Shown: positions 9,034 through 32,000, counted from the stretch's first letter. The stretch: DNA of 32,000 bases from Candidatus Saccharimonadota bacterium (GCA_963706795.1 OY970170.1:30001-62000), one strand, 5' to 3'. Notes: generated by a model not told the origin, from the sequence alone. Made by a program: numbers and translations.

Positions 9034-10314
9034 TTATGAGCTGTTATTTAAAAGAAACTGTTCATGAAATTTGTAATCATCGAATTTGTTGGTGACATGT
9101 ATTCAATATGTATGAGCCATATCGAGTTGCTCAAGCTCAGTCAGTGTGAGGTTGAGACTATTTGCAAGATGCAGACTTTTGATTCAGGCGGCACTTGCCC
9201 TTACAAGGACCTTGTGCAAAGAGTCCTTATGAAAATTCTTAATCGATCGAAAAACATTCTGTCCCAAGTCCAGGCTCCGAATACCTGCTCGCCCCGCTAC
9301 TTCTAAGAAATGACTAATATCATCGACATTTTTAAGGATATCTTCCAGATCATTGTTTTGAAGACTCAAATATCGTATTCCTGCATATCCTGCAGTCTCT
9401 ACAAAACTTTCAAGTTCTTTAAGACTAAAGATTCGTTCGAGATGATTCTGCCCGAAGTACAGACTTTTTATGCCTGATCGTCCTGCTACTATGGCCATTT
9501 CTATGAGCCCTTTTGCATCAATAGCACAAGCAGTGGGCCTGTCGTATGCAAACGCTGTTCCACTGAGATCGAGACTTCGAATTCAAGCAAGGCCAGCTGT
9601 CTTTACAAACTGGATGAGCTCTTGTATGGTGAATAGACCTATTCATTGTACTTTTTCACCTATCGATGCATCAAGGTGACGAATTCATTTTTCTCATAAT
9701 TCTTTTACAAGCGCGATAAATTCTGGGGTGGGTAGCCCGTTACAATATTCTGAGTTTGAGATTTTGAGCGCAGTGATTTCATCGGCGCACATATTCTCGA
9801 GTTGTGCATAAAACTGCTCTTTATGCTTGGTATCTATATGCATTCACCATGGCGTCGCACCAACACTCCCTTTGCGCTCGTAGATGAGATTATCCAATCA
9901 AAATTCCTGGATAAGTTTCTTCCAAAATTTATTAAAAAGCTCGGGTGCGACATTTTGGCCAATGATCGCGGCATATTCTGTGAATGCCTCACCGAGTGGA
10001 GTCAGCTCTCATTTTTGTCGAAATACTTGCTCTTCGAGGTTTTGAGATATTCGAGCATCAGAGAGGAGAATCTTTGTTTTATATTCACTGAAATTATATG
10101 GAAGTTCAGACGTCCTAAATAATTCTATATGCTGGCGAATTAGGGATTCGAGATGCGCAAGATGCTCTTGGTTTGCTTGTATATTTTCTTGTACATCTCA
10201 TCAAACCAGGTTTAAAATCTGTGCTATATGCTCCCGTATGTTTGGCTGCGCAATAAAATGAGCGATCGATGAGATCGATTTTTGAGAGACGGGATCGGTA
10301 TGATGAATAGACAT
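9034..10314 (-). CDS. array member 15: N-module/LRR family protein (426 aa)
   Basis: ATG 10312-10314 gives MSIHHTDPVSQ...IAQILNLV...YNFSEYKTKILLSDARISQNLEEQVF...LGEAFTEYA...KLIQEF[TGA]LDNLIYE. The LRR units include VKTAGLA[TGA]IRSLDLS, MAIVAGRSGIKSLYFGQN, VETAGYAGIRYLSLQNN and LEVAGRAGIRSLDLGQN. All 427 codons were translated without TAA or TAG, ending at TAA 9034-9036. Track fragment: 9184..9498. Confidence 0.85.
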
Positions 10315-10317
10315 GGA

Positions 10318-11286
10318 TTATCTCTTATAGATTACATGAATATTATATCTGCTTTGGATCTCTTCTAACTCGCAACGTTGCGCATATGAAGAATTCGGCT
10401 CGTATCACGAATTACGAATATTAAGAAAGCGAATACCTGATTTACCTGCAAGTTCAACGAGTGTTAAAAGCTGAGCAAAACTGTATGCACGAAATAGGAT
10501 ATCATTAAGAATCTTCAAAGTTCGCACGCCTGATGCACCCGCAACTTTCACAATATCGAGAAGGTCATCAAAACTCAGAACATGGCCGATATTACTGTCT
10601 CGAAATTCAATAGCACGAATCTCCATACCTCAGGCAATTTTCATAATCTCTATAAAATCCTCTTTACTCAGTATTCAAACTACAGATCATACTTCAAAAA
10701 TGAGAGTACGACTCCCCTGACTCTGACAGTGAGAAACAAAACCAAAAATACTGTCTCGAGAAGAAGGTCAAAAACCGTGAGACTTGTGAAATCTCTTCTC
10801 ATTTAACAGATCACTCGTGGCCGTATAAATAATCGCGTCTAATCCAAGCTCAGATATGAGTTTGATTTTAAATTTTGCTCATATTTCAGATCCGTGAGAC
10901 AAATTCATGCATTCGAAATAGTCATAGAATGCCCTTTTGAGCGGCTCAGAATATGGCTCATTGAACACATCATTTTCAAGTACTTGCAGCATTTCGCTGT
11001 CTGTAAGTAGGAGTCATGTAGGATACGTGTACCATTCGTACAATGGGGGCGCTCTACGGACTTCCAAGGCGTAATTTTGTATACAAAGATACAGATTTGA
11101 TTCGAGCTCTTTTGTCTTGTAATAGCTCCTATCAAGCTCTATTTGAGACTCGTCGGGGAGCATATCTAAAATCCGAGTCACAGCCTCATGAATTTCTGGC
11201 TGCGTGATAAAAGAACTATCTGGGATGATGGACGCATTTAAAATCGGGGCGAAATTTTGATTAATCATAGGAATATGATTGTTCAT
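10318..11286 (-). CDS. array member 14: short N-module/LRR family protein (322 aa, only about 3 repeat units)
   Basis: MNNHIPMINQNF...VTRILDMLPDE...AFYDYFE...KFKIKLISELGLDAIIY...IMKIA[TGA]GMEIRAIEF...VKVAGASGVRTLKI...VELAGKSGIRFLNI. Track fragments 11014..11286 and 10405..10626 are joined by TGA-only gaps that I translated. Stop is TAA 10318-10320. Confidence 0.85.
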
Positions 11287-12874
11287 ACTGCTCGAGTTCG
11301 ATCATGATATGATCTGTGGGGGCGAATATAATGCTTCAATTTTCATAGGTATCGTAGACAACGAGTTCGACTATGAGATTATTTGCCTGCGCAATTGCAC
11401 GCATTTCTTGCTTAGTGTCTTCAGAAAAAATGACCTCACCGTAGGTTCCTACATAGAGCTTTTTTATTCAGGTAGAGGCCATATGAGTCATAAGTGGCAC
11501 TCCGTACTCATCCGAGAAATCTAAGCCTGGTGTTTCATGATTAAAATATAAGTTTTTAATACCTGATTCTCAAGCAACTTTGATCATATCCACGACATCC
11601 GCGATTGAATAATCGCAGGATTTCCAATTGCTAAATGCAAAATCGCGGATTCCCGACTCCCCTGCAAGTTTTGTGATTTTTATAATCGATTTGAAATCCA
11701 AAGTCTGTTCAAGGTCACTGAGCTTAAGATATACTTTTTTTATACCGGATTGCCCCGCCGTTGAAATTAAATGCATAAAATCATCGATGGTTGCACCTTC
11801 GTACATATCCAAATCTGAAAAGTAGATAGCCCGTATACCTGATTTTCCTGCTATTTTTGCAATCTCAGTCCAATAGTGGATATCTGGCTTCACCAAGGTA
11901 TTAAAAGAAATATTCGAAAAACGAATGTCGCCAAACCCCGCTTGTCCAGCCGTACGAACGATCTCCATAAGCGACTTCGGATCTTGATTTTTCTGAGTTT
12001 CTCGAAAATCAGCCTGTATATCAAGAAACTCCATCGTGATATTTAGACGATCGAATTCCCGCAGAAATCTACAGGCGTCTTTGGGATCAAACTTCAATAA
12101 GAAATCCCAAGTTGGAAGCTTGAACACGGTGATGCCTTCTGCATTTGCTGCATGCAAAAGCTCCAGAGCTCCATCACAAGAATCTTGCCCTCTGTAATCG
12201 AGATCTAAATACTCGAGCTTAACTGATCCTTTGGCCGCAAGGTGGATATGTTTGTTAAAATCCTCGAGTGTCAATCCGCTGGCTGATGGCTCAGTGTAAT
12301 CAAGTCGTAAAGCAGTCGCCCCCGCTTGTCTCATTAACTGAATCTGAGAGATAAATTCTTTCTCATTCGAATATACAATATCCTTCGAATCCCAAAAAAG
12401 TCACTCATCTATTCTATAATTTGAGCCGATATCCCCAGTTTGTTCGTACACAAGATCACCAAGCCCGAGATCTTGCATAACTTTTCGCTTAAATTTTTCC
12501 CTAAATTGCGCATCAAGAGGCTCAATCGAGTCTATATGATTGTAGAAGACATTCTGTAGGTCTGCAAGATCAGCATCTCTGATAAATACTTCCTCGAGTA
12601 TTCTGAGCACTTCTTTCCTTGGCAGCTGAAGTCGTTTTGCGTAGTCCTCAAAATTATAGGTGGACTGAGTTGCAAGGTATGCGCTGGCAAGCTTTCGAAT
12701 ATTATCTGCCAATCGATGCTGCACATTAAGTTGAGTATCCAACTCTTTAATTCAGTCATCAGGAATGAGACTGAGGATTTGAGAGACATTTTCACCTATG
12801 CTTGACTGCTCGACAAAAGACCCATCTGGAAGAATGGGGGTGCCTGATGCGAAAGCGATATTCTGATTATTCAT
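11261..12874 (-). CDS. array member 13: N-module/LRR family protein (537 aa)
   Basis: ATG 12872-12874 gives MNNQNIAFASGTPILPDGSFVEQSSIGENVSQILSLIPDD[TGA]IKELD... Track fragments 12401..12742 and 11570..12334 are followed by a translated 100-codon tail (...VA[TGA]ESGIKNLYF...AST[TGA]IKKLYV...) ending at TAA 11261-11263. Confidence 0.85.
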
Positions 12875-14423
12875 AAACATGATACGATCAAGCTCTACCA
12901 TCGAGAATGAGTCTTATGTTATTTGTTTGAGCAAAGGCACACATTTTTTGCTCAACATGTGTAGCAAAGTTCACAAGACGGAGGTCGTTTACTTCTAGAT
13001 TTTTCATGCCGGTATCTGCCATAATAGCAAGTAGTAGCATCCCATCGTCATCAGAGAACCCAATACCGCACTTATGCATATGAAGCTCTAAACTTTTTAT
13101 ACCTGAAATTCAGGCAGTACGTATCATTTCTGTAATATCTGAAGCAATCCATTCACGAGCTCAGCTGTCATGATCATAATCTCCATGAAGGCTGAGACAA
13201 AAATCAAGAATTCCTGAATCTCCTGCACATTTGAGCAATATCTCAGCAGTTTTGGTATCCAAAATATCCTCAAGTCCGCTCAGTCTAAAATTAAATCTTT
13301 TAATGCCCGAGTGACCTGCGACTGAAATTAAGCACATGGCATCCCGTATATCTGTAGTTTCATATATCTCAGTTTTCCCCATGGTAATACTCTTGATACC
13401 GGAATCACCCGATACCTTGGTAATTTTTGCCCAATAATCGATATTCGATTGAATAGACCCTCAGAAGAAAATGCCAGAAAAATCAATATCACCCACCCCA
13501 GCATTCCCCGCCATTTTTACAATCTTCATAAGCAACTTTGGATCTCTATATATTTCAGAATCACTATCACTCAGATCAAGATTGCCACCCGTCCTATTGA
13601 GATTTTCAAGTTCCTTAAAGAAATTCTGAATATCTTTTTGCTCAGAATCAAGCAAGAAAGACTCAGTTGGGAGCATAAGTAGGGTAATATTTGCCTCTCT
13701 TGCGACATGAAGTAACTCTATTGCCTGGGCACAATGAAGCCCTGGATACGCGATATCCACATAATGAAGTGGCACTATTCATTGCGAAGCGATCTGAATA
13801 TGTTCTTGGAGTTCCTGGGTAGTTAGCTGACTTATACCAGTATAATTAAGGGTTAATGAGGTGATTCAGGTTGTTCTCGCAGACCGAATCTTTGAGCAAA
13901 ATTGCGCGACATCCTTGCAGCATATTTCCTGATGTTTATCCCAAATATCTACTAGATAGCTTGACGATATATCTCCAGTCCGTTGGTAGACAAGATTGTC
14001 CAGATTCAAATCCTGTACGACTTTTAGTTTAAATCGTTCTCTAAAATTTGGGTCAAGATTTTGAATCGAATCGACATACTCATAAAAAGCTTTTCACAGA
14101 TCCGTGAGAACGTTATTTTGTCGAAATATCTCTTCCTCAAGAATCCTGAGTACTTCTTTGCTCGGCAATTGAAGACGCAGAGCATAGTCTCGAAAATTAT
14201 ATGCAGATTGTGTACCTAGATATTCTTGTGCAGCTTCACAGAGATGATCTGCGGATTGATTCACGAGAGTGAGCTGCGTGCCAAGGTCTTCGATTCACTG
14301 CTCAGGAATAAGGCTTAAAATCTGAGAGACATTTGTTCCAATATCAATTTGCTCGCCAAAAGACCCATCAGGAAGGATGGGTGATTGATCAGTGGGAGCT
14401 AGATGATTAAGAGATAGTGACAT
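12867..14423 (-). CDS. array member 12: N-module/LRR family protein (518 aa)
   Basis: ATG 14421-14423 gives MSLSLNHLAPTDQSPILPDGSFGEQ...SQILSLIPEQ[TGA]IEDL...YNFRDYALRLQLPSKEVLRILEEEIF... This N-terminal part is invisible in the track because TGA chops it. Fragments 13461..13775, 13161..13382 and 12888..13079 are in the same frame. RTA[TGA]ISGIKSLEL is present. Stop is TAA 12867-12869. Confidence 0.85.
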
Positions 14424-15954
14424 AGTCATCGTATTCACGGGCTCTAAAGCCCAATTTAAAATTATGAAGTCTCGCCATATCTGTAAGTTGTTGCATGGAT
14501 TCTTCGGAAAGCTTCTCTCCTCGATATATACCTCCTAAATGCAAAATACGAATACCCGAAGCCACAGCCACAGTGATAATCCTCATAAATATCTCCTCAA
14601 CAGGATTTTTGGATTCTAGGATTTCCGTGGAGTTAAATAGACTATTATTATTAAGATTCAGGACGCGAATTCCAGCCTGACCCAAAGCTGTAATGAGACT
14701 TAAATAGCTATCTAAACCACCTTGCGGAACGCGATAGCTAAAATAAATATCTAGGATTCTCACTCCTAAATTGCCCGCAAGCTTGATTGCATGTATAAAT
14801 TCTTCAACTTCTGTGCTACTCTCCAAATTGATCCGTCAAGTATGCATCCCTTTAATTCCATGTGCACCTGCAGTGGAGATTACTTGTGTAATTCTTTGTA
14901 TTGCAAGATGAGACAGATCTCATGATAGATCTCATCAGAAATCTAAATTCTTTATTCCGGATATTCCTGCCGCTCTCATGAGCCTAGTACAGTCGTTAAC
15001 GCTCAACAAAGATGCATCTAGCATCAATTTAAGCTCTCTTATTCATATTGATCCAGCAATACGCACTACCTCTATAAGAAAATTAATATCTTTAAGTGAT
15101 GGATTTAGTTCATCCGAAAGTTCTAGGCGATCTACAATTATATCCAATTGAACTCATTTTTTTAAAATACGCTGCACATTCTCAAGGTCTCAATCCAAAA
15201 GAATTGCACTTTCGATCCTGAGCTGAACACCAAACTCCCGAGCAGTCTCGTATAACTCTTCAATTTCAAGAGAGGACAATCAATTAAAATCAATAAATAT
15301 CTGCTCAAGCTCACGCCTCTCTACAACAAGCCTGATATGATCTTTCAGGTCTCAAAGCGTCAAGTTCTTGGGTCTGCCATATACTTCATAACTGAATACT
15401 ACCTCCGTAACATCTCTGGGTAGCTCACGAATAAAACCTGCAAATAAGTCAGCTTTATCGTCATCATAAATCAATGAAGCCTGTTTTGCTTCTTTCTTTT
15501 CTATCTCAGGAAACTCATACACGAGATTCGTAAGTCAAAAGTCTTCAATTACCTTTAGCTTCAGCTTCGTGTCATATCACAAATTCGCATTCGAAATACT
15601 ATTTATATAGTCATAGAAGGCTTGTCCTAGAAGATTTATAACACCATTTTTTTGTAAGATTTCTTTTTCAAGAATACTCAGAACTTCTTCGGTTGGCATA
15701 AGTAGCCGCCTGGCATAGTCTCTAAAATTATATTTAGATTGGACTTGGAGATATGTTTCAACAGCTGTACGTAGATTGTTCGCTGACTGATTGAGACTAT
15801 GGAGTTGCAAATCCAGTTCTTGGCGTTGCTCATCAGGAATGAGATTTAAGATCTGAGCAACATGTTCACTGATGCCTGATTGCTCGCCAAAAGACCCATC
15901 AGGGAGGATGGGTGATTGATCAGTGGGGGCGAGATGATTAAGAGATGATGACAT
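14407..15954 (-). CDS. array member 11: N-module/LRR family protein (515 aa)
   Basis: ATG 15952-15954 gives MSSSLNHLAPTDQSPILPDGSFGEQSGISEHVAQILNLIPDEQ... I translated 14827-15576 in frame and found 11 TGA and no TAA or TAG. KVIEDF[TGA 15535-15537]LTNLVYE is present. Track fragments: 15577..15960 and 14407..14826. Stop is TAA 14407-14409. Confidence 0.87.
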
Positions 15955-17473
15955 AGCCACAGTAAGCGTTAGCCATAAAGCCTAATGTAAAATTATGCAG
16001 TCTCGCTGTGACTGTGAGTTTTTGCATGGATTCTTCGGAAAATATCTCACCTTTATATGAGCCGCCTAAATACAAAACATTGATTCCGGCACCAGCAGCT
16101 ACCGAAATTATCCTCATAAGTACTTCCTCGATTAGATTGCCAGACTCTAGGATTTCCTTTTCGTTAAAAAAGTCACCATCTCCAAAATGCAGGACGCGAA
16201 TTCCAGCTCGACCGAAATTCTCTATAAGGCTCAAAAGATTATTGAATCCGTATGGTAAGTCGAGATGGCTAAAATCAATTTGTAAAACTCTCACTCCCAA
16301 ATCACTCGACATATTCATACATTCTTGAAGCTCTTCAAACTTCGCTTGAGTTTTGAGATTAATGAGTCAAGTATGCATATGCTTAATTCCACATGCACCC
16401 GCGTGAGAGATAATTTGCATAATCTCTTTTACGTCGAGCATATCTAATGGTGTGACGGCAAAATTTATACTCTTTATCCCATACATTCCTGCCACTGTAA
16501 TGAGTTTGAGATACTGCTCGACCCTGAGTAGCTCATACGCCCTAAAACTCAGCTTGCTAATTCATATTAAACCAGCAATGTGAGTCATCTCAACGAGGCG
16601 ATCAAAATCCTTAAGAGCAGGATTCACCTGATCAGAAAGCTCTAAAGAATTTGCAGTTATGCCTGATTGAACACATTTTCTCAAAGCATTACTTATATCA
16701 TTAGGGCTTCAATCTAGTAGCATTGCGCTATCGATCGTCAATTTGAGCCCAAATTGACGCGCTGTTGCTGATAATTCTTCAGCATCGCTTGGGGTCAATC
16801 AGTCAATGGTAATCGATATTTCCTCTAGTATCCTTGTCTGTGCAGCGAGCTTAATGTGATCCTTGAGATCTTGGAGCTGTAGATGCTGAGTAATATCTCT
16901 ACTGTAATGAAATAGTATTTTTTTTATATCAGCTAGTGTCTCGAGTATGTCGCTCTGAATATGATAATCTTCGTCATATTTATACATTATTAATTGCGCC
17001 TTCACTGGCTCTTTCTTGTTGGTATCAAGACGCTCATAGACTAAATTAGCAAGGCCAAAGTCTTTGATTACTTTTAGTTTCAGTTTTTCAGTATCAGCAA
17101 AATCCGTATCTGAAAGATTATGTGTATAGCTGTAAAATGCTTCTCATAGGAAGTTTCTCACGCCGTTCTTTTGCAAAATTTCTTCCTCAAGAATTCTAAG
17201 AACTTCTTGACCTGGTAGCCGGAGACGTTTAGTATAATCCTCAAAATCATATCCTGATTGTACCTGGAGATATGTTTCAACAGCATCACGAAGTCGCTTC
17301 GCGGATTGATCCAAAATATTTAACTGCACATTCAGCGACTTACGATCCTCATCAGGAATAAGACTCAAAATCTGTGAAACATTATCCCTGATACCAGACT
17401 GCCCACTAAAAATACCCTCAAAATTGATGAGCGATTCGTCTGTATGGTGGATCGAGTTATTAGGAGCAGTCAT
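15938..17473 (-). CDS. array member 10: N-module/LRR family protein (511 aa)
   Basis: MTAPNNSIHHTDESLINFEGIFSGQSGIRDNVSQILSLIPDED... Track fragments 17144..17473, 16799..17005 and 15938..16318 are in one frame, and the gaps I translated contain TGA only. VIKDFGLANLVYE is present. Stop is TAA 15938-15940. Confidence 0.87.
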
Positions 17474-17481: not shown

Positions 17482-19008
17482 TTATGTTCGAATGGTAGCT
17501 ATCATGTTGTAATCCTTCATGATTTCATTGAGCTTTTTCTTATATGCCTCCGAGAATTTAGCGCCATGGAAGCGACCAATTTCTAAATTTTTCATCCCGT
17601 GCGAAGCTGCTGTAACAAGAATTTCTATGTGTTCGTCTTCAGTATATACGTTGGAATACTTATGCTGAACATGGTCACCCGAATAAAAATGAGTATTGAT
17701 ATGCAGCGCTTTAATTCCACAATCTCCAGCTGTTTTGAGGATATCTATAATTTCTGCCATAAGCACCGCGCGATCTATCTTAAAAGAAATCTTTAGATCC
17801 AAAATTCACGAATCACCTGCAGCTTTTATAAGCTCTTCGATATCTCGGATATCTCATATGTAGCGCAAGCTGAGTCTCTTAATACCGACAGCACCTGTAA
17901 TCTGAATAAACCTTATAAGATCATCGAGGGTGTCTTCGTGCAAATCTGTCTCTCATAAATCTAAACTTTTAAACCCAGTAGAACCTGCACAATTTACAAT
18001 TTCAATCCAGTCACTCATATCAGCTCATTCAAATGACAATGACATTGCAGAGAGATTGAGATCACGAAATCAGGCCAATCCAGCAGTCCGAACTATCTGC
18101 ATAACCTCATCCTTATCTTGAAACCAATTAGCATTCGAATCATCAAGATTGAGATAACCATTACTCAGTCCAAGACGACCAAATTCTCTTAAAAAGTTTC
18201 ATGCTTCAGGAGGATCGACTTCTAATAAAAAGAGTTCGGTTGAAAATTCGAGTGCAAGTATATCGAGGCTATGTGCCATATACAAAATCTCCAAGGCATC
18301 AGCACAACTCAATCACTCATGAGATATTTTTAAATACAGGAGCTTACCTGGACCCTCTGCCGCAGCTCGCATATGCTCTTTGATATATTCGATACTCATT
18401 CAGGTATCTTGAGCGAGACGCTGAGAATAACTAAGTTCTACTGCGTTAATTCAAGTTTGCCGTATACGTCGTATATTCGATAAAAAAGTCTCCAAATTAC
18501 CTTGGCCCAACTCAGGAAAATGCACTGGTGTAAAAACTGGACTCACTTCCACGGTCGTGAGATATTCGTACACCAAACGATCAAGGCCAAAATCCTTGAT
18601 GACCTTAGCCTTAAATCTTTGCTCAAGAAGCTTATCAGTGCGATCTAACAAGCTCACATAGTCATAAAAAGCCTCTCCCAGAGTGGTCTTCTCGCCATTT
18701 TTTATAAAGTATTCCTCCTCAAGGATTTTGAGAATGCGCGCATCCGAAAATCGCAGTCGTTCGCCATAATCTTTAAAATTATAGTCAGATGGTTTCTGGA
18801 GATATTCATGAACTACTGCACTTAATTGATCCGCAGATCTTTGGAGTGCATTCATTTGAGCGCTAATTCTTGATCGTTGTTCATCAGAAATCAGCCCTAA
18901 AATCTGTGACACATTGCCTCCAATCTCCGACTTTCCACCAAAAGAATCACCCAAAATGGATGTATCCTCTCTCAGAATATCTTGTGGTCGCGGAGATAGT
19001 GCTGCCAT
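17482..19008 (-). CDS. array member 9: N-module/LRR family protein (508 aa)
   Basis: MAALSPRPQDILREDTSILGDSFGGKSEIGGNVSQILGLISDEQ...VIKDFGLDRLVYE. Track fragments 18451..19008 and 17482..17802 are joined by a translated 650-nt stretch with 9 TGA and no TAA or TAG. Stop is TAA 17482-17484. Confidence 0.87.
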
Positions 19009-22256: not shown

Positions 22257-23805
22257 ATGTTCAACGTCAGTAACTAAATTGCATATCAGATAACTGCATA
22301 GTCTCGAGCATTTTTTGGTACATTTCTGGAGAAAATGCAGCCTTTAGTTCATCGCGTGTTAAATGAAAACTCTTGATGTCAGAGGCTTTCAACGTAGTAA
22401 AAAAGTTCAGGTAGCCTTGTTCAGTAAAATTGCGAGTGCTTGCATCGATCACAAAACCATTCCATCAAAAATCAAATATCTTAATGCCAGCTTCGCTAAC
22501 AGTTTGTATTAGCTCAATCCACTCCTCAAGATCATCTGCAACCTGAATCTGTGTATAACCATTATATGAGAGGTCTAACTCACGTATACCTGAAGCTCAT
22601 GCAACCCGTGTAAACTCAGTCAGTTGTTTAAAATCCATGATTCCAGCGAGATATGTTTCAGCGAGATTGAGACTTTTAATACCACTAAATCCAGCAACTC
22701 TAACGAAGTTGAGTGCATCATCAAAACTAGCACCGCGGAATATGTCTGCATTCGCTAAATCGAGCACTCTTACTCCGGAGAGACCAGCAACTCTTGCGAG
22801 TTCGATATAAAATCAAACATCGACACGCAACTTTTTTTGAAAAAGATTATGCCCAAAATCTATACGACGAATTCACATCCGACCAGCAATTGCGACAATC
22901 TTTAGAATGGATTCTGGCCTCATTGCGTATGCTTTTGCACCCCAAGATGATAGGTCTAAAGCTGAATTATGCATCTGATTTGATATGCCGAGGGAATCCA
23001 ACTCAAGCAACAGTTTTAGTAAGTCTTCCTCTTGATATTCTTGTAGAAAATCATTATATAAAAATTCTATGTGTGGCATACCAAGATCAGCGGCTGTATG
23101 CAGGAGTCTAATAAGTGAATCACAATCTAATGTCGGATTCGTAGAGATATAGAGCCGTTTGAGTCATGCAAGTTTTGCTGCAGCTGTGATCTGCCTCTCT
23201 ATGTCTTCTACACTCACCGGAATACGGTATGTAAAAGATAGGCCATCGATATTGTCTCTATTAGCTTTACGGATTTCTGAAAGAAAAATCTCATGATCCT
23301 CTGGAATCTGAAGAATGAGTCGCTCTATTTTTAGTGGCTGATTCTTAGCATCCGAATCACGCATACTTTCGTATACCAAACGATCCAGTCCAAAATCCCT
23401 CATAATCTTGATTTTAAACTTTGACGTATTTGCTATGTCTGAATCTGTCGCAATATTCCAATAGCTATAAAAGGCTTCTCCTACAGAGGTAAGACCATCG
23501 GCATTTACAAGGATTTCTCGCTCGAGAATATCGATCATTGCAGAATCAGAGAGCTCGAGACGATCTCTATAATTTTGGAAGTTGTAATCACCTTGAGCAA
23601 GCATAAATTCTTCTACAGATTTACGTAGTTGAACTGTGGCGGTCTGCAAGAGACTGAGTTTAGAGTTCAGCTCTTGGTGCACTTCTTGGGGAATGAGGCT
23701 CAATATTTGAGCTACGCTCTTCCCTACTCATTTTTGATCAGCAAAAGAACCATCGGGTATGATGGGTGACTGTGGACTCTGGGCGAGATGATTATTTAGT
23801 GACAT
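22243..23805 (-). CDS. array member 6: N-module/LRR family protein (520 aa)
   Basis: ATG 23803-23805 gives MSLNNHLAQSPQSPIIPDGSFADQK[TGA]VGKSVAQILSLIPQE...IMRDFGLDRLVYE. Fragments 23164..23703, 22873..23079 and 22267..22452 are in one frame. I translated 22453-22872 (ARVAGLSGVRVLDLAN, VRVAGFSGIKSLNLAE, TRVA[TGA]ASGIRELDLSYN). Stop is TAA 22243-22245. Confidence 0.87.
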
Positions 23806-23808
23806 ATT

Positions 23809-25431
23809 CTAGTATGTAAGCTCTATATTATAGCGCTCTTGTGCGGTATGAATTTCTGGTGCAAGATGGAGGAATCTCTTCTCAGTAAAGCCTTCATATA
23901 TATTTAAGTAGCGAATTCCAGCATTTCATGCAACCTCAATAAGGCGCAGTATTGAAATATCATCTAATTTCGCCAGGATTCAGGTATTATACGACAAATT
24001 AAGATGCACAATCCCTGAAGCTCCTGCAGCCTTTAAAAAGGCGAGGAGGGCTTCTCAAAAGAGGATATTTCAGAGTTTATTTTCCTCAAGACTTAGGCTT
24101 TTAAGATTGGCTTTTGGTTTTAAGGTTACGAGTTCAATGAGTCAGACAAGATCAAAATTCTGCCCAGCAGAGGTGGATATTTTAAGGTATTGCAGACCAT
24201 TTTGCACTGCTCTATGTGTAAAAAGTATCAAGTCGTCGTACGATACACGACGTGCTGGCATACATATCGCAATCCCTTTGAGTCGAGACGATCCTACTAA
24301 ATCTGCTATCTCATTAAATGCCTGAGAAGTAAGCTGATATGCAAAATCCCTATCATTAATATCTAAGTTCGGTACGTCAGATGCGGTTACCGCAGTAACT
24401 AACTCCACGAGTTCCTCAGACTCTAGATGAAACTTCGGATTTCCCACAAAAGTAAGTCATTCTACTTTTGATGCAGTTATAGCATTCACAACTGTAATAA
24501 TTTGATCCACAGAAGAGCCACCTTCTATAAAGAGAGGCACGTTGAGATTTCGTAAACCAGCCTCACGAGCAGTGCTAAACAGTTCTTGATATGTCCTCTT
24601 AAATTTAGCCCCATCAATTCAACGAAATCAAAAATGCTGATTTACCTGTCTAGGCAGGGCAATATTCTCCACGCCGGACTCACCAATGGCCTTCACAAGC
24701 TCCAAGATCATGGTGCTATCGAGATATTGTATGAGTTTAAATGCCGAAAGATCGAGATGTTTCACTCATGCTTTACCTAGGAGCGCAAGAGATTGCATAC
24801 ACGCAACAAATACTGCCTGTACATGTTCGGAGTCTTTCGCACCACCTGAAAGAACGAGTATTTTTCTGACATTTTCTTTCAGACCTACTCTTAGAGATGC
24901 AACGCCATTTAATGCCTGTAATGCTTCATTGAATTGCTCAGCATTACTAAAATCGATGTTTCCCCATCAGAGAAATAACGATTCGACTCACCGCTCACAC
25001 ATGAGCTCAAAAAATCAAAACTCTCGCAAGAGTTTGATACGCATCTCTGTATGAAACTTGGCGTCATTTTGGTCTACTAGGTAGTCAAGATATGCATCAA
25101 GATTTTTAGCAGCTTCAGTCGGTATTCAATTTTTGTGGAGGATTTCATTATCAATCAGCTCCAAAATTCGCTCATCTGACATAACAAGTCTTCTCTGATA
25201 TTCAGCAAAAGGACATCGCACTTCTGATTTTCTAAATCATTCGACCGATTCCTTGAGTTTATTCGCAAGCATTTCGCCCTTTTCGAGTGCTGTTAAAAAT
25301 CACGCCTTGCCCTCACTAGGCAAAAGCTCGAGAATCCCATTTACATTTCGACTGATTTTTTGGTCAGCAAAACTATATCCTGAAAGTGCAGGAGTATTTT
25401 GGTCGGGTGCGGTGTGGTTGAGGCCTGGCAT
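23809..25431 (-). CDS. array member 5: divergent N-module/LRR family protein (540 aa, about 15 in-frame TGA)
   Basis: ATG 25429-25431 gives MPGLNHTAPDQNTPALSGYSFADQKISRNVNGILELLPSE... All 541 codons were translated by hand without TAA or TAG. The standard-code track shows only one fragment over 60 aa (24142..24447). Motifs: LGKA[TGA]VKHLDLS, AREAGLRNLNV, LKAAGASGIVHLNLSYN, IEVA[TGA]NAGIRYLNI. Stop is TAG 23809-23811. Confidence 0.85.
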
Positions 25432-25435: not shown

Positions 25436-27004
25436 TTAAATAAGAAGACGGAGATTGAATTTTTCGGCGATTACCCTTATCTCAGGCAAAAGGTGATTGA
25501 ATCGGCCAGCGAGATTACCGCCAGAGAAGTCCAAAAATCATATTCCAGCAATTCCAGCAGTATTTAAAAACTCAAGTAATGAGTGATCGTGTAACAAATC
25601 TCCAATATATCCGTGATTAAATTTAAGACTTCTCACTCCTGACTTCCCTGCTAATTGAATAAAACCCATTAAGCCAGCCATATCTTCTGTGAGATAAATA
25701 AAACTGAGGTCTATATTTTTTAGTCACACAGATCCTCCATCCTTAAAGAGATCCATCCAATCCGCTATTTCAAAACCGGTAGATATTAGACTCTCAGGTA
25801 ATTTGATATCTCGCACTCAATTTTTACTAGCAATATTGGCAAATTCGATGAGATCTGGATATGTAATGTGTGAATACGTATTCAGAAATATATTGAGATT
25901 GAGCGAGGTGTGACCCGAAGCACCTACTGCTCTCACAAACTCAGCAAAATCCTGCGTCGAAGTGGTAGCTGCAAAATGATAATCACTCATCTTTATTTTG
26001 TTTCTGAGACCAGATGTAGCAGCAGTGTTTAGGAGAGTTATTGCCTCTGTAATAGTATATTCTCGGTGTGTCCCGTCAGCCATATTATCTCCGAAGGTTA
26101 TACTCTGTAATCATGATGCACCCGCAGTACGAAGGAGTTGTTGGATATGCACAATGGGCGTATCTCGTTTAACGAGTGAGTTCTCAGTGAGAATGAGCTC
26201 ACGAATACCAGCTTTCCCAGCTGCTTCTACAAACTCTAAAAGCTCTTCAAATTCTCAAAAACTATCCTGTAAGTCATTCGATGACAAATCAAGCACTGTA
26301 ATCCCAGATGCCCCAATTACTTTTACGATCTGTATCCATTCTTTGGGAGTATATGAAAAGCATTTTAAGAGGGCAAGAGCCTCAACATTTGAATGCTTTA
26401 AAACACCAATAATCTTCATAAGATATGGAGCATCCATGCCATCTTCAACAGCAATGGTTGGCATCATTGCATCAGTAAGTTGCCCGATTACAGACATGAA
26501 TTGCTCCATGTATTCAAACTGTACTTCAATGCTCTTTTTTGGAGCAAAAGAGGGATAATACTCACTCTCAAAAACCAGATCCTCGAGCCTAAACTCAGTC
26601 ATGATCTTTTGCTTCATATTTTCATAAAAGCCTGTATCATCCTTGCTCACAATGCTTGATATGTAAGCCTCGAGAGCTTCTCAAAGGTCTGTTTGAATAC
26701 CATTCTTATGGAGGATATTCTCATGAAGTATCTTTTGGACTGCAGACACATTCAAGACAGTCAGTCTTTCGCTGTAGCCAGAGAAATTATAACTTCTTTG
26801 AGTTTCTTTGACCTTGAGAATCTCTTCAGTGAGCCTAGAGGCAAGCCCTTTGATATGCTCGAGGGATGAAGCAATTTCTGCATGGTGATTCTCTGGAATG
26901 AGCTCGAGAATCCTATGAACGCTTTCGTTCATTTTGTGATCAGCAAAATATCCCTGATCTTTAGGATTCAATGAGTCGAGAGCGGAATTATTAATCGAGG
27001 ACAT
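25436..27004 (-). CDS. array member 4: N-module/LRR family protein (522 aa), close paralog of member 3
   Basis: MSSINNSALDSLNPKDQGYFADHKMNESVHRILELIPEN... Fragments 26681..27004, 26255..26650 and 25817..26083 are in one frame. I translated the gaps and the 127-codon tail (...IQLAGKSGVRSLKF...NTAGIAGI[TGA]FLDFS...RFNHLLPEIRVIAEKFNLRLLI). Stop is TAA 25436-25438. Confidence 0.87.
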
Positions 27005-27027
27005 TAGTCGGTCATAAGAATTTGGAG

Positions 27028-28572
27028 ATTATATTTCTCCGTAATTGCTTGTATTTCTCACAAAAGATGATTGAATCGATCCGAAAGATGACTATCAGAA
27101 AGATCTAAAAATCATATTCCGGAAGCTCCCGATGCAGTTAAAAATTCCAGGAATGAATCATCATCTAGCAAATCTCCAATACTTCTATTGCCAAATGTAA
27201 GACTTCTCACTCCTGACTTACCGGCTAATTGCACAAATCGTATTAAATCATTGCTATTTCCGAAGAGATGAATCGAGCCCAGGTATATGTTTCTTAAGGA
27301 TGTAGAGCCGTGTTCAAATGGTTTTATTAACTCTGCTATTTCAAAGCCAATAGATGCTAACATCACTGGTAATGTAATATCTCGCACTCCATTCTTACCA
27401 GCAATGTACATGAATTGGATAATGTCTTTGTATGATATTTCTTGGTATTTGCCGAGAAATATATTGAAATTAAGTGAAGTGAGACCCGAACTACCGACCA
27501 CCCTGACAAACTCGGCAAAATCCTGATGCGAAGTTGTGGCGGCAAAATGATAATCATCTAATCTGATTTCATTTCTGAGACCAGATTCAGCTACTACCTT
27601 TATCGTGTCTATAGCATCCAGATGAGTAAATACTGGCCTAAGATGATGATCAATAAAGTGCAAAAAATCTATCTTTTGAAGTCCTGCTTCACCTGCAGTA
27701 CGAAAGAGTTGTTGAATATTTTCGAGAGGAGTATCATTTGTGATCAATCAGTTCTCATTAAGGATGAGCTCGCGAATACCGGCTTTTCCAGCCTCTCTTA
27801 CAAATTCTAAAAGCTCTTCGAATTCTCAAAAGCTCTTCTGCAAAGCATTTGATGATACATCAAAAATTTTGATCCCTGCTGCACCGACTGCTTTTACGAT
27901 TTGGATCCATTCTTGAGGAGTATACGAAAAACATTTTATGAGGGCGAGCGCCTCAACATTCGAATACCTTAGAACACCAATAATCTCCGCGAGGTATTCA
28001 GCATCCATGCCATCTTCAACAGCAATGGTTGGCATCATTTCATCAGTAAGTGATCCAATTTTAGTAGTGAATTGCTCCATATATTGAAATGGTACCTCAA
28101 TCCGCTTTTTTCGAGCAAAAGATGGATAATACTCGCCCTCAAAAACTAGGTCCTCAAGTGCAAATTCAGTCATAATCTTCTGGCGCATATTTTCGTAGAA
28201 TCCTGCATCATCTTTGCTCGCAATGCTTGATACATAGTTTTCAAAAGCTTCTCAGAGTGGGGTTTGAATACCATCCTGGCAAAGGATTTTTGTATCGAGC
28301 GTCTTTCGAATTTCATCTACGCTTAAAAGAGTCAGTTTCTCACTATAGTCCAAAAAGTTATAGTACTTTTTGGTCATTTTGACTTTGAGGATTTCCTCTT
28401 TGAGTCGAGCACCAAGTACTTGATTGTGCTCAACAGATGTTACAACATCAGCAATACCAGACTGCGGAATGAGCTCGAGAATTCTATGAACACTTTCATT
28501 CATTTTTGGATCAGCAAAATACCCCTGATCTTTAGGATCTGATGAGTCAAGAGCGAGATGATTGAGCGACAT
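27028..28572 (-). CDS. array member 3: N-module/LRR family protein (514 aa)
   Basis: MSLNHLALDSSDPKDQGYFADPKMNESVHRILELIPQS... Fragments 28252..28572, 27826..28188 and 27112..27747 are in one frame and I translated the gaps (FVREAGKAGIRELILNEN[TGA]LITND). The tail ...TASGASGI[TGA]FLDLSDSHLSDRFNHLLVRNTSNYGEI ends at TAA 27028-27030. Confidence 0.88.
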
Positions 28573-28596: not shown

Positions 28597-30150
28597 TTAT
28601 GAGTTATTGCTCACACTTGCAGCAATCGTCACATTGCTAGACCGAAGGATTTCACGGAAACTGTCTATGTCTCATTGAGAGTAGCACGCAGCGAGTCACG
28701 GTAGCAGGACTCACTCTCCTGACATATCTAAGTACTTCAGCCCATTTTCACCCGCGACAATGACGAGTGAGGAAAAAGCCGGCAAGGAAAAAATATCGTG
28801 CATACCATTCCATGCAAAACTTAATCTCTTGATGCCTGCACAACCAACAGACCTCACAATATCAATAAAATGCTCCATTTCTTGGGTATAATCATTATCA
28901 TATCCACTCGAATTCACACTCAAATCCCTGATCCCAGATTCTCAGGCAATTTCTATAAATCGCTTAAATCCATCAAATCCAAGCACAGACGAGAGTGATT
29001 CGCTATTAAAAACAAAACGCTTAATGCCAGATGTGCCTGCTGTTTTGACCATCAAAAAGAGATCGTCTGGAGTCAGATGAGCATTCACCATCTCAGTGGA
29101 TGAGAGATTAAAATCGGTAATACCGGAGTTACCTGCAACACGAACGAGCTCTATGAATTGATTAAAATTCATAATGTCCTCAAAAGAGTTAGAAGACATA
29201 TCCAGACGCTTCATGCCCGCATGTCAGTATGCGCGGACTATATCAAATATTTGTTCCGCATTAAATCGGCAACTCAATCAAACTCAGAAGTTCGATGCAA
29301 AACTCAATTGTTGCATGCCGAGCTCGTCTGCTATACGTATATAGTCATAAACCTCCTCCAAAGTCCATTCCGCGAGCGGATACATCGATCAATCTATTGA
29401 TGGTATACCATATTCTTTTGCTGCGTGCATAAGCATTACAGCTTGTTGGTAAGTGAATCTATCTCTTCATACGACCCGAACACGTTTCGGCAGATACGGA
29501 CCTTTGCTCAGTAATTCTAAATGTGCCTTTATTTGCTCAAAATGTACCGTGGGCCTTGAAGAGTAGGAAAGACTCACAAAATCATGCGGGGAAGTTGTCT
29601 GCTCTCGTATCTTTGACGCCATCGCGTCATCGCTGTCTTTTGCGGTCATCCTGATACTCACATCCGAAGGCAATACGTAGATATCTTCAGAATTTGCCAG
29701 AGTCGCGTTACTCGGTCTCTCATATACCGCGTCCAAGAGCTTAAATTCTCGGATCACTTTGCGTATCATGCCTAGCGCAATCTCGCCTCAGTCTATTTGT
29801 AAACATTGTATATATTCACGGAATGCATTTCATACAGGAGTTTCAACACCTCGAGTATTGAGAATTTCCTGATTAAGCAGATCCATAATCTCTTCCTCTG
29901 AGAGTAAAAGTCGCTCTGGATAATCACGGAAGTCATACGAAGACTGCTCGAGCTTGAGCGCATCTACGGCACTCTGTAATCGAGCGGTTATCTCATGCAG
30001 TTGCTCAAATTGAGCACTGAGCACACTACTCTCCTCGACTGGAATAAGCTCAAGAATCTGGTGAACATTCGCACTAATTTTTGGATCAGTAAAATACCCC
30101 TGATCTTTAGGATTTGATGAGCCGAGTACGGAGTGGTTGAGACCTGGCAT
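28597..30150 (-). CDS. array member 2: N-module/LRR family protein (517 aa)
   Basis: ATG 30148-30150 gives MPGLNHSVLGSSNPKDQGYFTDPKISANVHQILELIPVE... Fragments 29830..30150, 29467..29769, 28942..29214 and 28711..28923 are in one frame. I translated all gaps and found TGA only; RAY[TGA]HAGMKRLDMSSN is present. Stop is TAA 28597-28599. Confidence 0.88.
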
Positions 30151-31721
30151 TAGTCTATACTAAGATACATATTGAATTTTTGCGAAATTTCGGCGATTTT
30201 GTCAGAGAGACCTTCAAAGAGTTGACCGAAACCGTTATCTTCAAGATTCAAATGTCTTATTCATGCACTTCCGGCCGCGATTAGAAATTCGAGGAATGAG
30301 TAGTGATCGAATAGACCATCAAGTGCATTATCCGAGAGGTTCAGACTTCGAATCCCTGATGTACCTGCGAGTTGTACAAATTTTATCAAATGGACTGCAT
30401 CAAAATGAGTACTAAGACCATTTCATGAAAGATTTAGGCTTTTGAGCGAACAGGAAGACTCGAACTCTATAAGGTTCATAAAATCTTCGCGATCAAAAAG
30501 GTATTCTAATTCACCAGACGAAAAATTGAGATCTCGGACACCATTGTTTGCCGCAGTATGTGCGAATGCGATAAATTTTTTGCTGGATAGTAATTCGTAA
30601 ACACTGCTTTCTCTCCCCATATACAACGAGGTTATACCCGAGATGCCACTGAGTCGTGCAAGCTCGATAAATTCTTGATCTGACAGCACAGATGTTAGAT
30701 CATAACTCATAATATACGGCCACCTGAGACCTGATTCGCCCGCAGTTCTGACAATCGAAAGAACCTCCGAAGCACTATATTCTCGAGCATCATCACCCAC
30801 TCCATCACTGATATTTAAACAGAGAAGTCCGGAATTACCTGCAACACGCAATAGTTCATGGATTTTTTCGATGGGTAGCCTTATTTTAATGAGCCGATTA
30901 TAATCCAGATTTAATTGGCGAATACCTGAAGTCCCCGCTACTCGAACCAGCTCGATCAGATCATCAAAGTCTCAAAAACTCTTATCTAGATCATTATTCG
31001 AGATCTCGAGAGTATGCATTCCTGACTCACCAACGACCTGTACAATCGTAATCCATTCCTGAGCACGAAAAGAGAGATTACCTGGCATAGTGATCGACAA
31101 AGCAGAGCAATTTACATCTTTTAAAAGCGAAATAGTCTCCACGAGACGGTTCAATCCGAATGTGTTTTCAAATGTAAAACTGAGTGCGACTTCATGTGCT
31201 ATCTCTTGCAAGAAGGTTTCAGAATCAGCAATATTCTCAAGCTGTATATTCACTGGCTCATCCGAAGGCATATTCAGATAATCTTCACCCTCAAAAACCA
31301 AATCCTCGAGAGCAAACTCAGTCATAATCTTTTGTCTCATGCTCTGTCGAAGCCCTCAATTATCATGAGCAAGAATAGTATTTACGTAGGCCTCTAAAGC
31401 CTCTCAGAGCGGAGTTTGCATGCCGTCTTTTCGCAAAATACGCGTCTCGAGCATATTTTGTACCTCACTAGAACTCAGAAGTGCGAGACGTTCACTATAG
31501 TCAGAGAAATTATAGTGAGCCTGGGATTTTTTAAGTTCAATCACTTCTTGCCTGACTTTGTCTGCAAAAGACTCCAAAGTTTGAAGTGACGAAGAAATGC
31601 CAGCAACATTGGATGATGGAATCAGGTTAAGGATACGACTGATATTTTCTTGGACCCTTGAGTCAGCAAAGTTCCCGACTGCGGGCTCTATGGATTCGGG
31701 GGTAAGATTATTAAGCGCCAT
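30150..31721 (-). CDS. array member 1: N-module/LRR family protein (523 aa)
   Basis: ATG 31719-31721 gives MALNNLTPESIEPAVGNFADSRVQENISRILNLIPSS... Fragments 31404..31721, 30972..31340 and 30423..30851 are in one frame. I translated the gaps and the 91-codon tail (VQLAGTSGIRSLNLSDN, IAAGSA[TGA]IRHLNLEDN) down to TAA 30150-30152, which shares one nucleotide with the ATG of member 2. Confidence 0.88.
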
Positions 31722-31724
31722 ATG

Positions 31725-31838
31725 CTAAAAGATGAATTGCATGCCGTAAGATTGTGCGATTGTTTTTATATCGGAGAAATACCCTGTGGATTGGGTGTTA
31801 TTTTGGGGAGAAGGTGCGAAAGAAGAGAGACGAGACAT
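31725..31838 (-). pseudogene. collapsed 37-codon mini-member of the array (family N-terminus fused to family C-terminal tail)
   Basis: ATG 31836-31838 gives MSRLSSFAPSPQNNTQSTGYFSDIKTIAQSYGMQFIF, ending at TAG 31725-31727. The stretch QSTGYFSDIK resembles DQGYFADPK of members 2-4. IAQSYGMQFIF resembles the tail IIQSYGMQLVY of member 7. Confidence 0.4.
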
Positions 31839-31845
31839 CTAGTCT

Positions 31846-32000
31846 TTAATCAAAAGTAAGCTGCATGCGGTACTTAGCAGCGATTGCATACATGCGAGAT
31901 ACATGTTCTGCTGACATTGCGGCGGGCCCATACCTGGCTCAGAGCTTAAGAACACCGATTCACGCGCATCAAGCGGCTTCTATAATTGCAATAGAGGCAT
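31846..32000 (-). CDS. C-terminal end of a further array member (5' part beyond window edge)
   Basis: The frame is open from the window edge: ...ASIAIIEAA[TGA]CA[TGA]IGVLKL[TGA]ARYGPAAMSAEHVSRMYAIAAKYRMQLTFD, ending at TAA 31846-31848. It carries the AGxAGI..L.L unit and a family-type tail (compare KHQMKLTYG in member 8). Confidence 0.7.

Follow-up and report, generated by a model that had tools for sequence, protein, structure and literature searches.

A 23-kb tandem array of LRR-like paralogs probably forms the amplified middle of a three-part cassette with an AAA_5-type ATPase and a putative HExxH/MIDAS protein

The window, that is, the whole 32,000-nt stretch of DNA that was analysed, holds between positions 9034 and 32000 a run of 15 intact genes, one collapsed mini-gene of 37 aa and one member cut by the window's edge, all on the minus strand when read with code 25. 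No interspersed non-family gene was found in this interval. A preliminary description had proposed such a one-strand tandem array, and translation together with an HMM of the family's N-terminal module (N-module) bears it out: the HMM matches all 15 members at 4e-46 to 1e-61 and finds no further match in the window. Each intact gene starts with ATG and ends in TAA or TAG (15/15), and the gene calls uphold the earlier observation that 13 of the 15 encode proteins of 508–540 aa, the other two being g14 and g15. The size of 23 kb also stands, and amounts to ~1.8% of a 1,267,896-bp contig with identical fragments.

Read along the minus strand, the array enters the window with the C-terminal end of the edge-cut member (31846–32000; translation ...AGCAGIGVLKLG...YRMQLTFD-stop), which shows an AGxxGI repeat and the family C-tail. 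In the adjoining mini-gene (31725–31838) the family N-terminal peptide is joined in frame to the family C-tail (MSRLSSFAPSPQNNTQSTGYFSDIKTIAQSYGMQFIF); the C-tail reaches a score of 41, where shuffles average 19.2 ± 2.9 and 0 of 500 are as high, and the N-peptide one of 33, where they average 24.2 ± 4.2 and 19 of 500 are as high. There follow g1 (30150–31721, 523 aa), with an N-module and 31-aa LRR-like repeats, g2 (28597–30150, 517 aa), g3 (27004–28572, 522 aa), which is closest to g4 (25436–27004, 522 aa), g5 (23809–25431, 540 aa), which has the most TGA codons (15), g6 (22243–23805, 520 aa), g7 (20682–22256, 524 aa) and g8 (19103–20692, 529 aa), whose start was set at MSLNNQ as in its paralogs; a second in-frame ATG of g8 lies at 20788. 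The remaining members are g9 (17482–19008, 508 aa), g10 (15938–17473, 511 aa), g11 (14407–15954, 515 aa), g12 (12867–14429, 520 aa), g13 (11261–12880, 539 aa; alternative ATG at 12901), the short g14 (10318–11286, 322 aa), with ~3–4 repeats, and g15 (9034–10314, 426 aa). A public Logan assembly starts g14 at 11268 and translates TGA as Trp (P0003). The array stops at 9034 because the next gene, g16 (6488–8980, minus strand, 830 aa), belongs to a different, syntenically conserved family.

The genes are packed in an apparently operon-like manner, with spacings of −26 to +24 nt and the sole exception of a 94-nt gap between g8 and g9. Within this gap, a sigma-70-like hexamer pair (TTGTGA-17-TAAAAT, 19036–19064, minus strand), identified by consensus match only, may be a candidate internal promoter. 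Promoter-like sites are fewer in the array region than in shuffled sequence (39 observed vs 53). As to the genetic code, table 11 fragments the region into ORFs of 100–254 aa, while with TGA read as sense the ORFs of at least 150 aa add up to 47 kb instead of 8.3 kb. When TGA codons are set against aligned conserved columns, Gly receives a weighted count of 30, no other residue more than 9, and Trp none; this overwhelming preference for conserved Gly columns supports code 25 (TGA = glycine), under which the members are intact. Intactness of all 15 genes and conservation of the N-module also agree with the earlier view of a maintained family rather than one in decay.

Every paralog consists of a disordered N-peptide, an all-helical N-module of ~120 aa, a flexible linker, about 3–8 detectable 31-residue RI-like repeats and a conserved C-terminal strand. 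The AlphaFold model of the homolog P0009 (pLDDT 83.6) has its helical domain at residues 25–144 and a disordered linker at 147–156, and DSSP assigns nine regular helix–strand units to it; residues 1–150 of g9 were modelled at pLDDT 78.8. No relatives of the N-module appeared in Pfam, NCBIfam, PADLOC, PDB-sequence or Foldseek searches, so that it has no recognisable family or fold, in keeping with the preliminary description, which knew of no described bacterial system with this module. The paralogs carry no NTPase domain. Mean identity among them is 33% in the N-module and 22% in the remainder, in keeping with the constant-plus-diverged layout described earlier, and the closest pair, g3 and g4, share 66% and 63% in the two parts.

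The repeats have a modal period of 31 aa (range 27–37), and their consensus reads xxlielxxxAGxsGIkxLxlxxNxL. The 93 repeat units of the window give I58%-x-x-L58%-x-L32%/F26%-x-x-N24%-x-L30%, a pattern that contains the LRR segment LxxLxLxxN/CxL, and external homologs show a clearer core, SGIRxLDLSxNxL. Pfam LRR_1 matches g1 at 26.2 bits against a cut-off of 20.6, falls under the cut-off in g15 and does not match g7; for P0009, no precomputed Pfam domain is recorded. By Foldseek, the P0009 model superposes best on the LRR protein Rna1p/RanGAP (1yrg_A; TM 0.38 by query, 0.45 by target), but TIM-barrel folds outrank Rna1p by E-value, at a TM of about 0.24. These results agree with the LRR-like nature first proposed, and the repeat domain may form an open solenoid of 31-residue RI-like LRRs with a C-terminal cap strand. 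The IxxLxLxxNxL core followed by a helix, and the strand/helix alternation of the model, are like those of RI-like LRRs (ribonuclease inhibitor, RanGAP), but the period of 31 exceeds the canonical 28–29 and the 20–30 residues by which LRRs are defined, the helix ends in an A-G-x-S-G turn absent from described LRR classes, most members lack any Pfam LRR match, and the repeats are fused to a helical module with no known fold.

The suggestion that this is a diversified binding domain is borne out in part. The repeats are indeed diverged, but divergence is spread over all exposed positions, and identity between close paralogs falls from 46% on the concave strand face to 33% at exposed positions of the helix and 28% in the loop after the strand, so that the concave face is more conserved than the helix face and not hypervariable. 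The sheet face also bears a conserved K/R ladder, which could point to a common ligand rather than to diversified ones. The proteins are acidic and soluble-looking, and a simple hydropathy test found no signal peptide, lipobox, convincing TM segment, sorting motif or cell-wall anchor in any of the 15; the highest KD19 value, 1.78, falls in the LRR core, and there is no hydrophobic N-terminal h-region. The earlier comparison with antigenic-variation families, like a surface reading in general, is thus not supported. The N-terminal peptide, MS.L..P..P.(I/L)P.GSF, is conserved and disordered, and g16-like proteins start with a similar one.

The family is very rare: 1.84 billion representatives include ~30 of its clusters, whose sources are without exception Gracilibacteria-type MAGs or metagenome contigs that bear no label, and each, where named, is called "hypothetical"; no relatives were found in IMG/VR. 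In the related loci whose array borders lie on the contig, the order is an AAA_5-type ATPase, then n family members, then a g16-type protein of ~820 aa, with 8 (L001/L006), 7 (L004), 5 (L005) or 1 (L009–11) members between the two, and both partners flank the paralogs in each of these loci; L007 and L008 carry the two ends of the cassette. The AAA_5 gene is seen in the related loci, and the window shows the g16 side, a position 3' of the array that g16 orthologs also take in L004, L005, L008 and L009. Genes outside the cassette differ from locus to locus, which marks the cassette as the conserved unit. Rather than standing alone, the family forms the middle of a three-part cassette, and the array in the window is the expanded form of that middle component; with n of 1–8 in related loci and at least 16 here, it is the largest known expansion. 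Conserved order shows linkage of the genes, not physical contact between their products.

The upstream ATPase of the related loci is ~850 aa long; a large insert separates its Walker A from its Walker B motif, and it carries long additional domains. It matches Pfam AAA_5 (E = 3e-11, 43.9 bits vs a cut-off of 22), and in hhalign it aligns best with two MoxR ATPases, YehL (150 columns, P = 1.3e-3) and RavA, at the level of a RavA–YehL positive control. It also shows a match to nSTAND3 (E = 3.6e-5) that at 23.9 bits lies under the cut-off of 27.2, AAA_5 being the better fit, and, in its P-loop region, a weak match to PADLOC mad8 (E = 2e-6, 25 bits). The N-terminal part of g16 contains an HExxH motif (FHELSHFRD) and NCIDDIIVNKEVE, followed by an acidic low-complexity linker, and its C-terminal domain has a MIDAS-like pattern (DISGSM...GGTND...QIADNDVTE). 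From end to end, g16 shares 65% identity with the gene that comes after the array in L001, far more than the paralogs share among themselves, and its family keeps HExxH and DxSxS..T..D invariant down to 30% identity. No Pfam, NCBIfam or PDB-sequence match was obtained for g16, and profiles detected neither a vWA nor a peptidase domain. Among 12 hhalign templates, ViaA (P = 7.6e-4) and YehP take the first two places, the match covering 18–29 columns; the scores equal those of a ViaA–YehP control, and ten negative controls all gave P ≥ 0.16. From these motifs and alignments, g16 is a putative zincin-like HExxH protein with a C-terminal vWA/MIDAS-like domain, and both it and the ATPase are predicted to be cytoplasmic.

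MoxR AAA+ ATPases work with vWA partners in the systems RavA–ViaA, YehL–YehP, CbbQ–CbbO and NorQ–NorD. The related loci resemble these in the clustering of an AAA_5-class ATPase with a large protein that ends in DxSxS..T..D, and the hhalign scores of the MoxR and vWA templates are those that bona fide pairs give mutually; g16 further resembles CbbO in size (about 800 aa) and in having a C-terminal MIDAS-type domain. They differ in the length, Walker A–B insert and extra domains of the ATPase, and in that g16 escapes every vWA HMM. The Pfam families DUF2201_N/DUF2201 comprise putative metallopeptidase and VWA-like proteins that adjoin MoxR ATPases, and likewise have HExxH followed by a MIDAS-type domain on one polypeptide encoded beside an AAA_5 ATPase, but g16 is about twice as long, and no match to them was found at E up to 10 for five family members and up to 1 for two more. 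In the vWA-MoxR "ternary" conflict systems (Kaur, Burroughs, Iyer, Aravind, eLife 2020; PMC7159879), the third component is VMAP, whole systems show paralogy, the systems are enriched in multicellular bacteria, and an LRR third component is not described. The cassette shares with them three components co-encoded around an AAA+/vWA couple, a possible effector domain (here HExxH) fused to the vWA protein and diversification by paralogy; here, however, the middle gene alone is amplified, its product is an LRR protein, and the cassette occurs in ultra-small CPR bacteria. In the literature on MoxR–vWA systems we found no description of 1 to at least 16 LRR genes between a MoxR-type ATPase and a vWA-type partner, and the cassette of AAA_5 ATPase, N-module–LRR proteins and HExxH/MIDAS protein appears to be undescribed.

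That the family lies, in related genomes, between the genes for an AAA+ ATPase and a large metal-motif protein suggests interchangeable recognition subunits of one machine. We tentatively favor, at somewhat less than even confidence, a reading in which the paralogs serve a MoxR/vWA-like machine in the cytoplasm as adaptor or sensor subunits that can replace one another. The cassette would be confined to TGA-recoded, Gracilibacteria-type CPR bacteria, and the window would represent a lineage-specific tandem expansion of its middle gene into 15 intact copies, a collapsed remnant and one or more additional genes. The constant N-module would dock every paralog onto one ATPase/MIDAS partner pair, the diverged LRR solenoid of each would bind its own target, and the paralogs would hand these targets over to a machine that uses ATP for remodelling or proteolysis, the repertoire being tuned by tandem duplication, divergence and occasional collapse.

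That the array is a mis-assembled repeat or a set of pseudogenes, as one member collapsed to 37 aa and the metagenome-type origin of the window might suggest, is highly improbable: an artefact of a collapsed or expanded repeat would not be expected from paralogs so diverged at the DNA level, where the best identity is about 76–77% over 140–300 nt with no near-identical stretches, and no pair exceeds 66% at the amino acid level. All 15 genes are moreover intact under code 25, g14 was assembled independently with identical sequence in a 26.7-kb Logan contig, and arrays of the same family are present in other genomes. It is also rather unlikely that the paralogs are exported effectors or adhesins for interaction with a host or prey, with the ATPase and g16 as export or assembly chaperones or as unrelated neighbors. 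Host-associated bacteria typically have expanded LRR families, and Gracilibacteria are predicted to live as symbionts or predators; genes for a sortase and a surface protein are found close by, and the conserved disordered N-peptide, shared in kind with g16-like proteins, could be a non-classical export signal; yet no export feature was seen in any of the 15 proteins, no secretion-system gene was found in or beside the cassettes, and the genes to which the family is tightly linked, in a conserved manner, encode two large proteins with a predicted cytoplasmic location.

The paralogs might instead be clients, which the ATPase/MIDAS pair folds, assembles or recycles, for example into a hetero-oligomeric scaffold. 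The pairs CbbQ–CbbO, NorQ–NorD and RavA–ViaA act on defined client complexes, each such chaperone maturing one specific complex, and the conserved K/R ladder and C-terminal capping strand suggest a shared structural role, to which a concave face that is not hypervariable would be suited. Copy numbers as far apart as 1 and at least 16 in different genomes and a repeat number of about 3–8 detectable units are, however, hard to square with a structure of fixed stoichiometry, and we consider this account doubtful. Similarly doubtful is a sub-case of the adaptor/sensor reading, an NLR-like defence against phages or other invaders that is split over several proteins, with the LRR paralogs as sensors, the ATPase as switch and the HExxH of g16 as effector. 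As in NLR/STAND receptors (NACHT or NB-ARC plus LRR), an NTPase goes with LRR sensors whose genes duplicate in tandem and undergo birth and death of copies, a source of repertoire; the weak nSTAND3 and mad8 matches of the ATPase point the same way, and one cassette adjoins a restriction-modification system. Unlike in those receptors, NTPase and LRR are here on separate polypeptides, the NTPase fits AAA_5 better than STAND, and the presumed sensor face is not hypervariable; in addition, PADLOC-DB 2.0 gave no match to the paralogs or g16, other cassettes lie among housekeeping genes, and the family is without relatives in IMG/VR.

If the paralogs are adaptor or sensor subunits, the cassette may, in a stronger form of the proposal that we hold to be rather improbable, encode a modular recognition machine in which one AAA+ motor and one MIDAS/zincin partner are served by up to 16 or more alternative LRR sensors through a novel helical docking domain, in effect a "split NLR" of an ultra-small predatory or episymbiotic bacterium. 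Such a machine would serve either innate immunity or the recognition and dismantling of proteins of the prey or host.

The tandem array of LRR genes in this Gracilibacteria-type contig is best read as an expansion of LRR paralogs linked to a probable AAA+/MIDAS pair. The conserved cassette to which it belongs, an AAA_5-type ATPase gene followed by LRR paralogs and then by a gene for a protein of about 820 aa, is the main addition of this analysis and gives the array a concrete, testable context.

The window has a G+C content of about 40% and under table 11 yields only short, fragmented ORFs. When TGA is read as sense, ORFs of 150 aa or longer add up to 47 kb instead of 8.3 kb, and no comparable rise in the window follows from reading TAG or TAA as sense. 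In the family alignment, TGA codons fall mainly in columns otherwise occupied by Gly, among them the glycines of the A-G-x-S-G repeat motif, and none falls in a Trp column; TGA = Trp was therefore rejected in favor of code 25 (TGA = Gly), the code used by Gracilibacteria and Absconditabacteria. In the public protein collections searched, the array's proteins (9034-32000; P0001, P0002, P0003, P0004-P0006, P0011, and P0016) occur as table-11 fragments of 84-185 aa or as TGA=Trp translations that show 'AWxSWIR' where 'AGxSGIR' belongs, and because the genes are present there only in these forms, the family is largely hidden from routine homology searches. With TGA as sense, plus-strand ORFs of up to 391 aa also open antisense within the array (23912-25084, 15966-16907, and others); these are most likely shadow ORFs.

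Read in code 25, the array contains 15 intact minus-strand genes (g1-g15) with ATG starts and TAA or TAG stops. All but g14 (322 aa) and g15 (426 aa) encode 508-540 aa, so that 13 of the 15 fall in this range, and an HMM of the family's N-module, a helical domain of about 120 aa, matches exactly these 15 ORFs in the window (4e-46 to 1e-61). Beyond them lie a collapsed mini-gene (31725-31838, minus strand; 37 aa), which fuses the family's N-terminal peptide in frame to its C-terminal tail and whose tail match beats 500 of 500 shuffles, and the C-terminal end of a further member (31846-32000) that runs off the window edge. The array set out in the preliminary description, with its 15 complete genes, mini-gene, and edge-cut member, is thus confirmed; the mini-gene is real, and with every complete gene intact the claim of a maintained family also stands. 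Spacing between genes is -26 to +24 nt, with a single exception of 94 nt. On average, paralogs share 33% identity within the N-module and 22% outside it, and adjacent paralogs are the most alike (N-module identity 66% for g3/g4, 59% for g10/g11, 57% for g12/g13, and 55% for g6/g7). The paralogs are old. The two closest share only about 65% identity, a distance at which synonymous sites would be saturated.

The architecture of the proteins was modeled on P0009, a correctly translated homolog (AlphaFold, pLDDT 83.6). In the model, residues 1-24 are a disordered N-peptide, residues 25-144 an all-helical domain, and residues 147-156 a disordered linker; nine regular helix-strand units follow, the conserved C-terminal tail contributing the strand of the last one. 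Two acidic residues, E95 and E147 in P0009 numbering, are nearly invariant, and an LVYE motif at the linker is conserved. The N-module had no match in Pfam, NCBIfam, PADLOC, or PDB-sequence profile searches, and the N-module of g9 from the window itself, modeled at pLDDT 78.8, had no PDB structural neighbor in Foldseek (best E = 0.27, TM < 0.3). For this domain, then, the original statement that no family could be assigned holds, and judged by profile and predicted structure the N-module is new in sequence and fold. Three DUF4046-type repeat proteins (P0027, P0028, and P0031), built of units of about 60 aa (WLIEEKLKLSDEEIK..LS.KLF.DNGL.GML), match N-module residues 76-113 at E = 5e-7 to 1e-3; the match is weak, covers only a short helical motif, and was set aside as a relationship; it may reflect a common motif of this kind or chance.

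The repeat unit comprises 31 residues, with the consensus xxlielxxxAGxsGI(K/R)xLxLxxNxL, in which an LRR core is followed by a helix closed by the A-G-x-S-G turn. Compared with RI-like LRRs, this is a long-period variant, and Pfam LRR_1 exceeds its cut-off in g1 only. The whole P0009 model superposes best on the LRR protein Rna1p/RanGAP (TM 0.38/0.45); the hits also include TIM-barrel proteins, with a TM of only about 0.24. Among PDB sequences, the repeats match a designed toroid, dTor_12x31L (2.6e-7); this match was not counted as homology and probably reflects the common 31-residue periodicity.

With the N-module profile, a word-seeded search of 5.8 billion proteins found just two table-11 fragments, both on one 1,267,896-bp contig that is evidently the source genome, and HMMER, run exhaustively on 1.84 billion representatives, found 30 proteins. 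Beyond the window's own fragments, the latter are 110-530 aa long and have the N-module, the 31-aa repeats, and the tail ...KQYNMKLDY in common with the paralogs; many carry W where G belongs and so also come from TGA-recoded organisms. All named matches are labeled 'hypothetical protein [Candidatus Gracilibacteria bacterium]'. Among GTDB species representatives the family occurs in two MAGs only, one labeled Gracilibacteria and the other, near-identical to the related locus L004, labeled Peribacteria. Pattern scans of GTDB genomes with window-type N-modules gave no match, and scans of JGI metagenome contigs and IMG/VR with the external subfamily found no relatives. The searchable literature yielded no description of the family, and it is absent from the text of a metaproteogenomics paper. 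The published 'hypervariable' locus of Gracilibacteria is unrelated, being a PTD tripeptide repeat within one gene (PMC6851277).

In related loci, the paralogs are consistently bracketed by the same two genes. L005 encodes an 850-aa protein, five members, and an 820-aa protein; L004 an 856-aa protein, seven members, and an 820-aa-type protein as in L005; and L001/L006 the end of an 850-aa-type protein, eight members, and an 822-aa protein, while L007 and L008 hold the two ends of such a cluster. At 25% G+C, L009-L011 carry a 782-aa homolog, a single member with two or three repeats only, and an 809-aa homolog. In the window, the gene g16 (6488-8980; 830 aa) directly follows the array and matches the 822-aa protein of L001 from end to end with 65% identity. 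The array thus forms the middle of a conserved cassette with three components, and its upstream ATPase partner should lie beyond position 32000. Related cassettes have one to eight copies and the window at least 16, and this variation, together with the collapsed remnant, points to gene birth and death. In L009 (2565-3333) the lone middle gene is split by a stop or frameshift near 3180 into ORFs of 205 and 56 aa, and may be a pseudogene or a sequencing error.

The genes flanking the cassette vary by locus (RF-1 and pilin; NDK; Fic, NUDIX, and MurG; a restriction-modification system). The last of these, a Methylase_S and N6_Mtase/Eco57I pair, adjoins the most divergent cassette (L009 5916-9091, minus strand, and likewise L010/L011) and may represent a defense-island context. 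In the window's left flank, a MarR-family regulator (3857-4288, minus), a weak, sub-threshold MazG-like match (4883-5185, minus), a DUF6629 membrane protein (5726-6373, minus), and the 3' part of a short-chain dehydrogenase (2-586, plus) do not recur beside the cassette in other genomes. A 503-aa Ice_binding-like protein with a signal-like N-terminus (835-2346, plus; Ice_binding-like E = 7e-50, plus DUF7507) and the sortase gene directly after it (2383-2997, plus; E = 7.5e-22) probably form a sortase/substrate pair, and are unrelated to the array.

The upstream protein of the related loci has a Walker A (GDTGSGKT) and a Walker B (IIDEVN) with an insert between them; it matches Pfam AAA_5 above threshold (E = 3e-11), and nSTAND3, GvpN, and PADLOC mad8 below threshold only. 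Among 5.8 billion proteins, g16 and its relatives account for six clusters. They have no Pfam, NCBIfam, or PDB profile match, but down to 30% identity they retain HE(L/F)SHF, NCIDDIIVNxEVE, DxSxS, G-x-T-x-D, and Q-x-A-D-x-D-V-x-E without variation, a sequence pattern in which a zincin-like site precedes a MIDAS site. In a small controlled hhalign test of cassette-partner profiles against 12 E. coli proteins, the g16 C-domain scored best with the vWA proteins ViaA (P = 7.6e-4) and YehP (P = 9.5e-3), all ten negative controls having P >= 0.16, and the ATPase with the MoxR ATPases YehL (150 columns, P = 1.3e-3) and RavA, with negative controls at P >= 0.28. Because the true pairs ViaA-YehP and RavA-YehL score at the same level in this test, the flanking pair most likely consists of a highly divergent MoxR-type AAA+ and a vWA-type partner, an assignment supported but not proven. 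MoxR-vWA operons with extra uncharacterized middle components already exist: in E. coli K-12 yehL-yehM-yehP-yehQ, the 759-aa YehM, of unknown function, lies between YehL and YehP. The disordered N-peptide of g1-g15, MS(P)L..P....P(I/L)(I/L)P.GSF, resembles the N-terminus of g16-like proteins, MSPLTPNHT...IPENFDDF (window 8900-8980; L001, L004, L005), and the likeness may be a shared recognition, docking, or export signal.

The paralogs thus combine a constant N-module, a flexible linker, and a diverged, predicted open-ended repeat domain with tight operon-like packing and conserved linkage to one ATPase and one metal-motif protein. In MoxR-vWA machines, the MIDAS domain grips a partner and the AAA+ ring does work. 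By analogy, the N-module would dock each paralog to the common partners and the LRR solenoid would bring a target, making the paralogs interchangeable adaptor or sensor subunits in the cytoplasm, a reading that we favor only tentatively. That the array is an artefact or in decay is extremely improbable: a collapsed or expanded assembly repeat is not credible because the top DNA identity between paralogs is only about 76% over 300 nt, and g14 was independently assembled in a Logan contig. Surface variation, as suggested in the preliminary description, is disfavored, since the 15 paralogs, all of them acidic, lack any signal-peptide-like or TM segment; that they are exported effectors is doubtful.

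A hypervariable concave face was tested and failed, with identity among close paralogs of 46% at exposed strand positions, 33% at exposed helix positions, and 28% in the post-strand loop. The K/R at unit position 16, right after the G-I of the repeat (AGxSGI[K/R]xLxL), is 57% conserved over 93 units and 73% identical among close paralogs, and would line the sheet face with a basic ladder, although the proteins as a whole are acidic. The conserved strand face and this ladder weaken the case for a classical hypervariable binding face and leave room for a shared ligand or a client/scaffold role. That the paralogs are clients of a chaperone pair seems improbable. Quite unlikely, too, is a split-NLR-type defense system, a sub-case of the adaptor or sensor reading; the cassette falls outside the NLRs, as its NTPase is a non-STAND protein separate from the LRR protein. 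The flanking pair is similar to MoxR-vWA couples, and its layout also recalls HExxH-plus-vWA proteins. A three-component logic like that of the cassette is found in the vWA-MoxR ternary conflict systems (Kaur et al., PMC7159879), which differ in their third component and in being duplicated as whole systems, whereas the cassette duplicates one gene. It is unlikely that the cassette is a categorically new modular recognition machine.

Gracilibacteria, of which we know of no cultured representatives, have genomes of about 1.3 Mb, and an array maintained intact over about 2% of such a genome is probably important to their way of life. What had been anonymous 'hypothetical proteins' become a defined three-component cassette, in which a motor and a metal-motif partner go with LRR subunits that form a variable set and carry a new, putative docking domain. 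Should the adaptor-repertoire reading fail, the N-module would still be a new fold-level family confined to one candidate lineage; should it be true, the array would represent a new bacterial way of building recognition diversity and a new partner class for MoxR/vWA-type machines.
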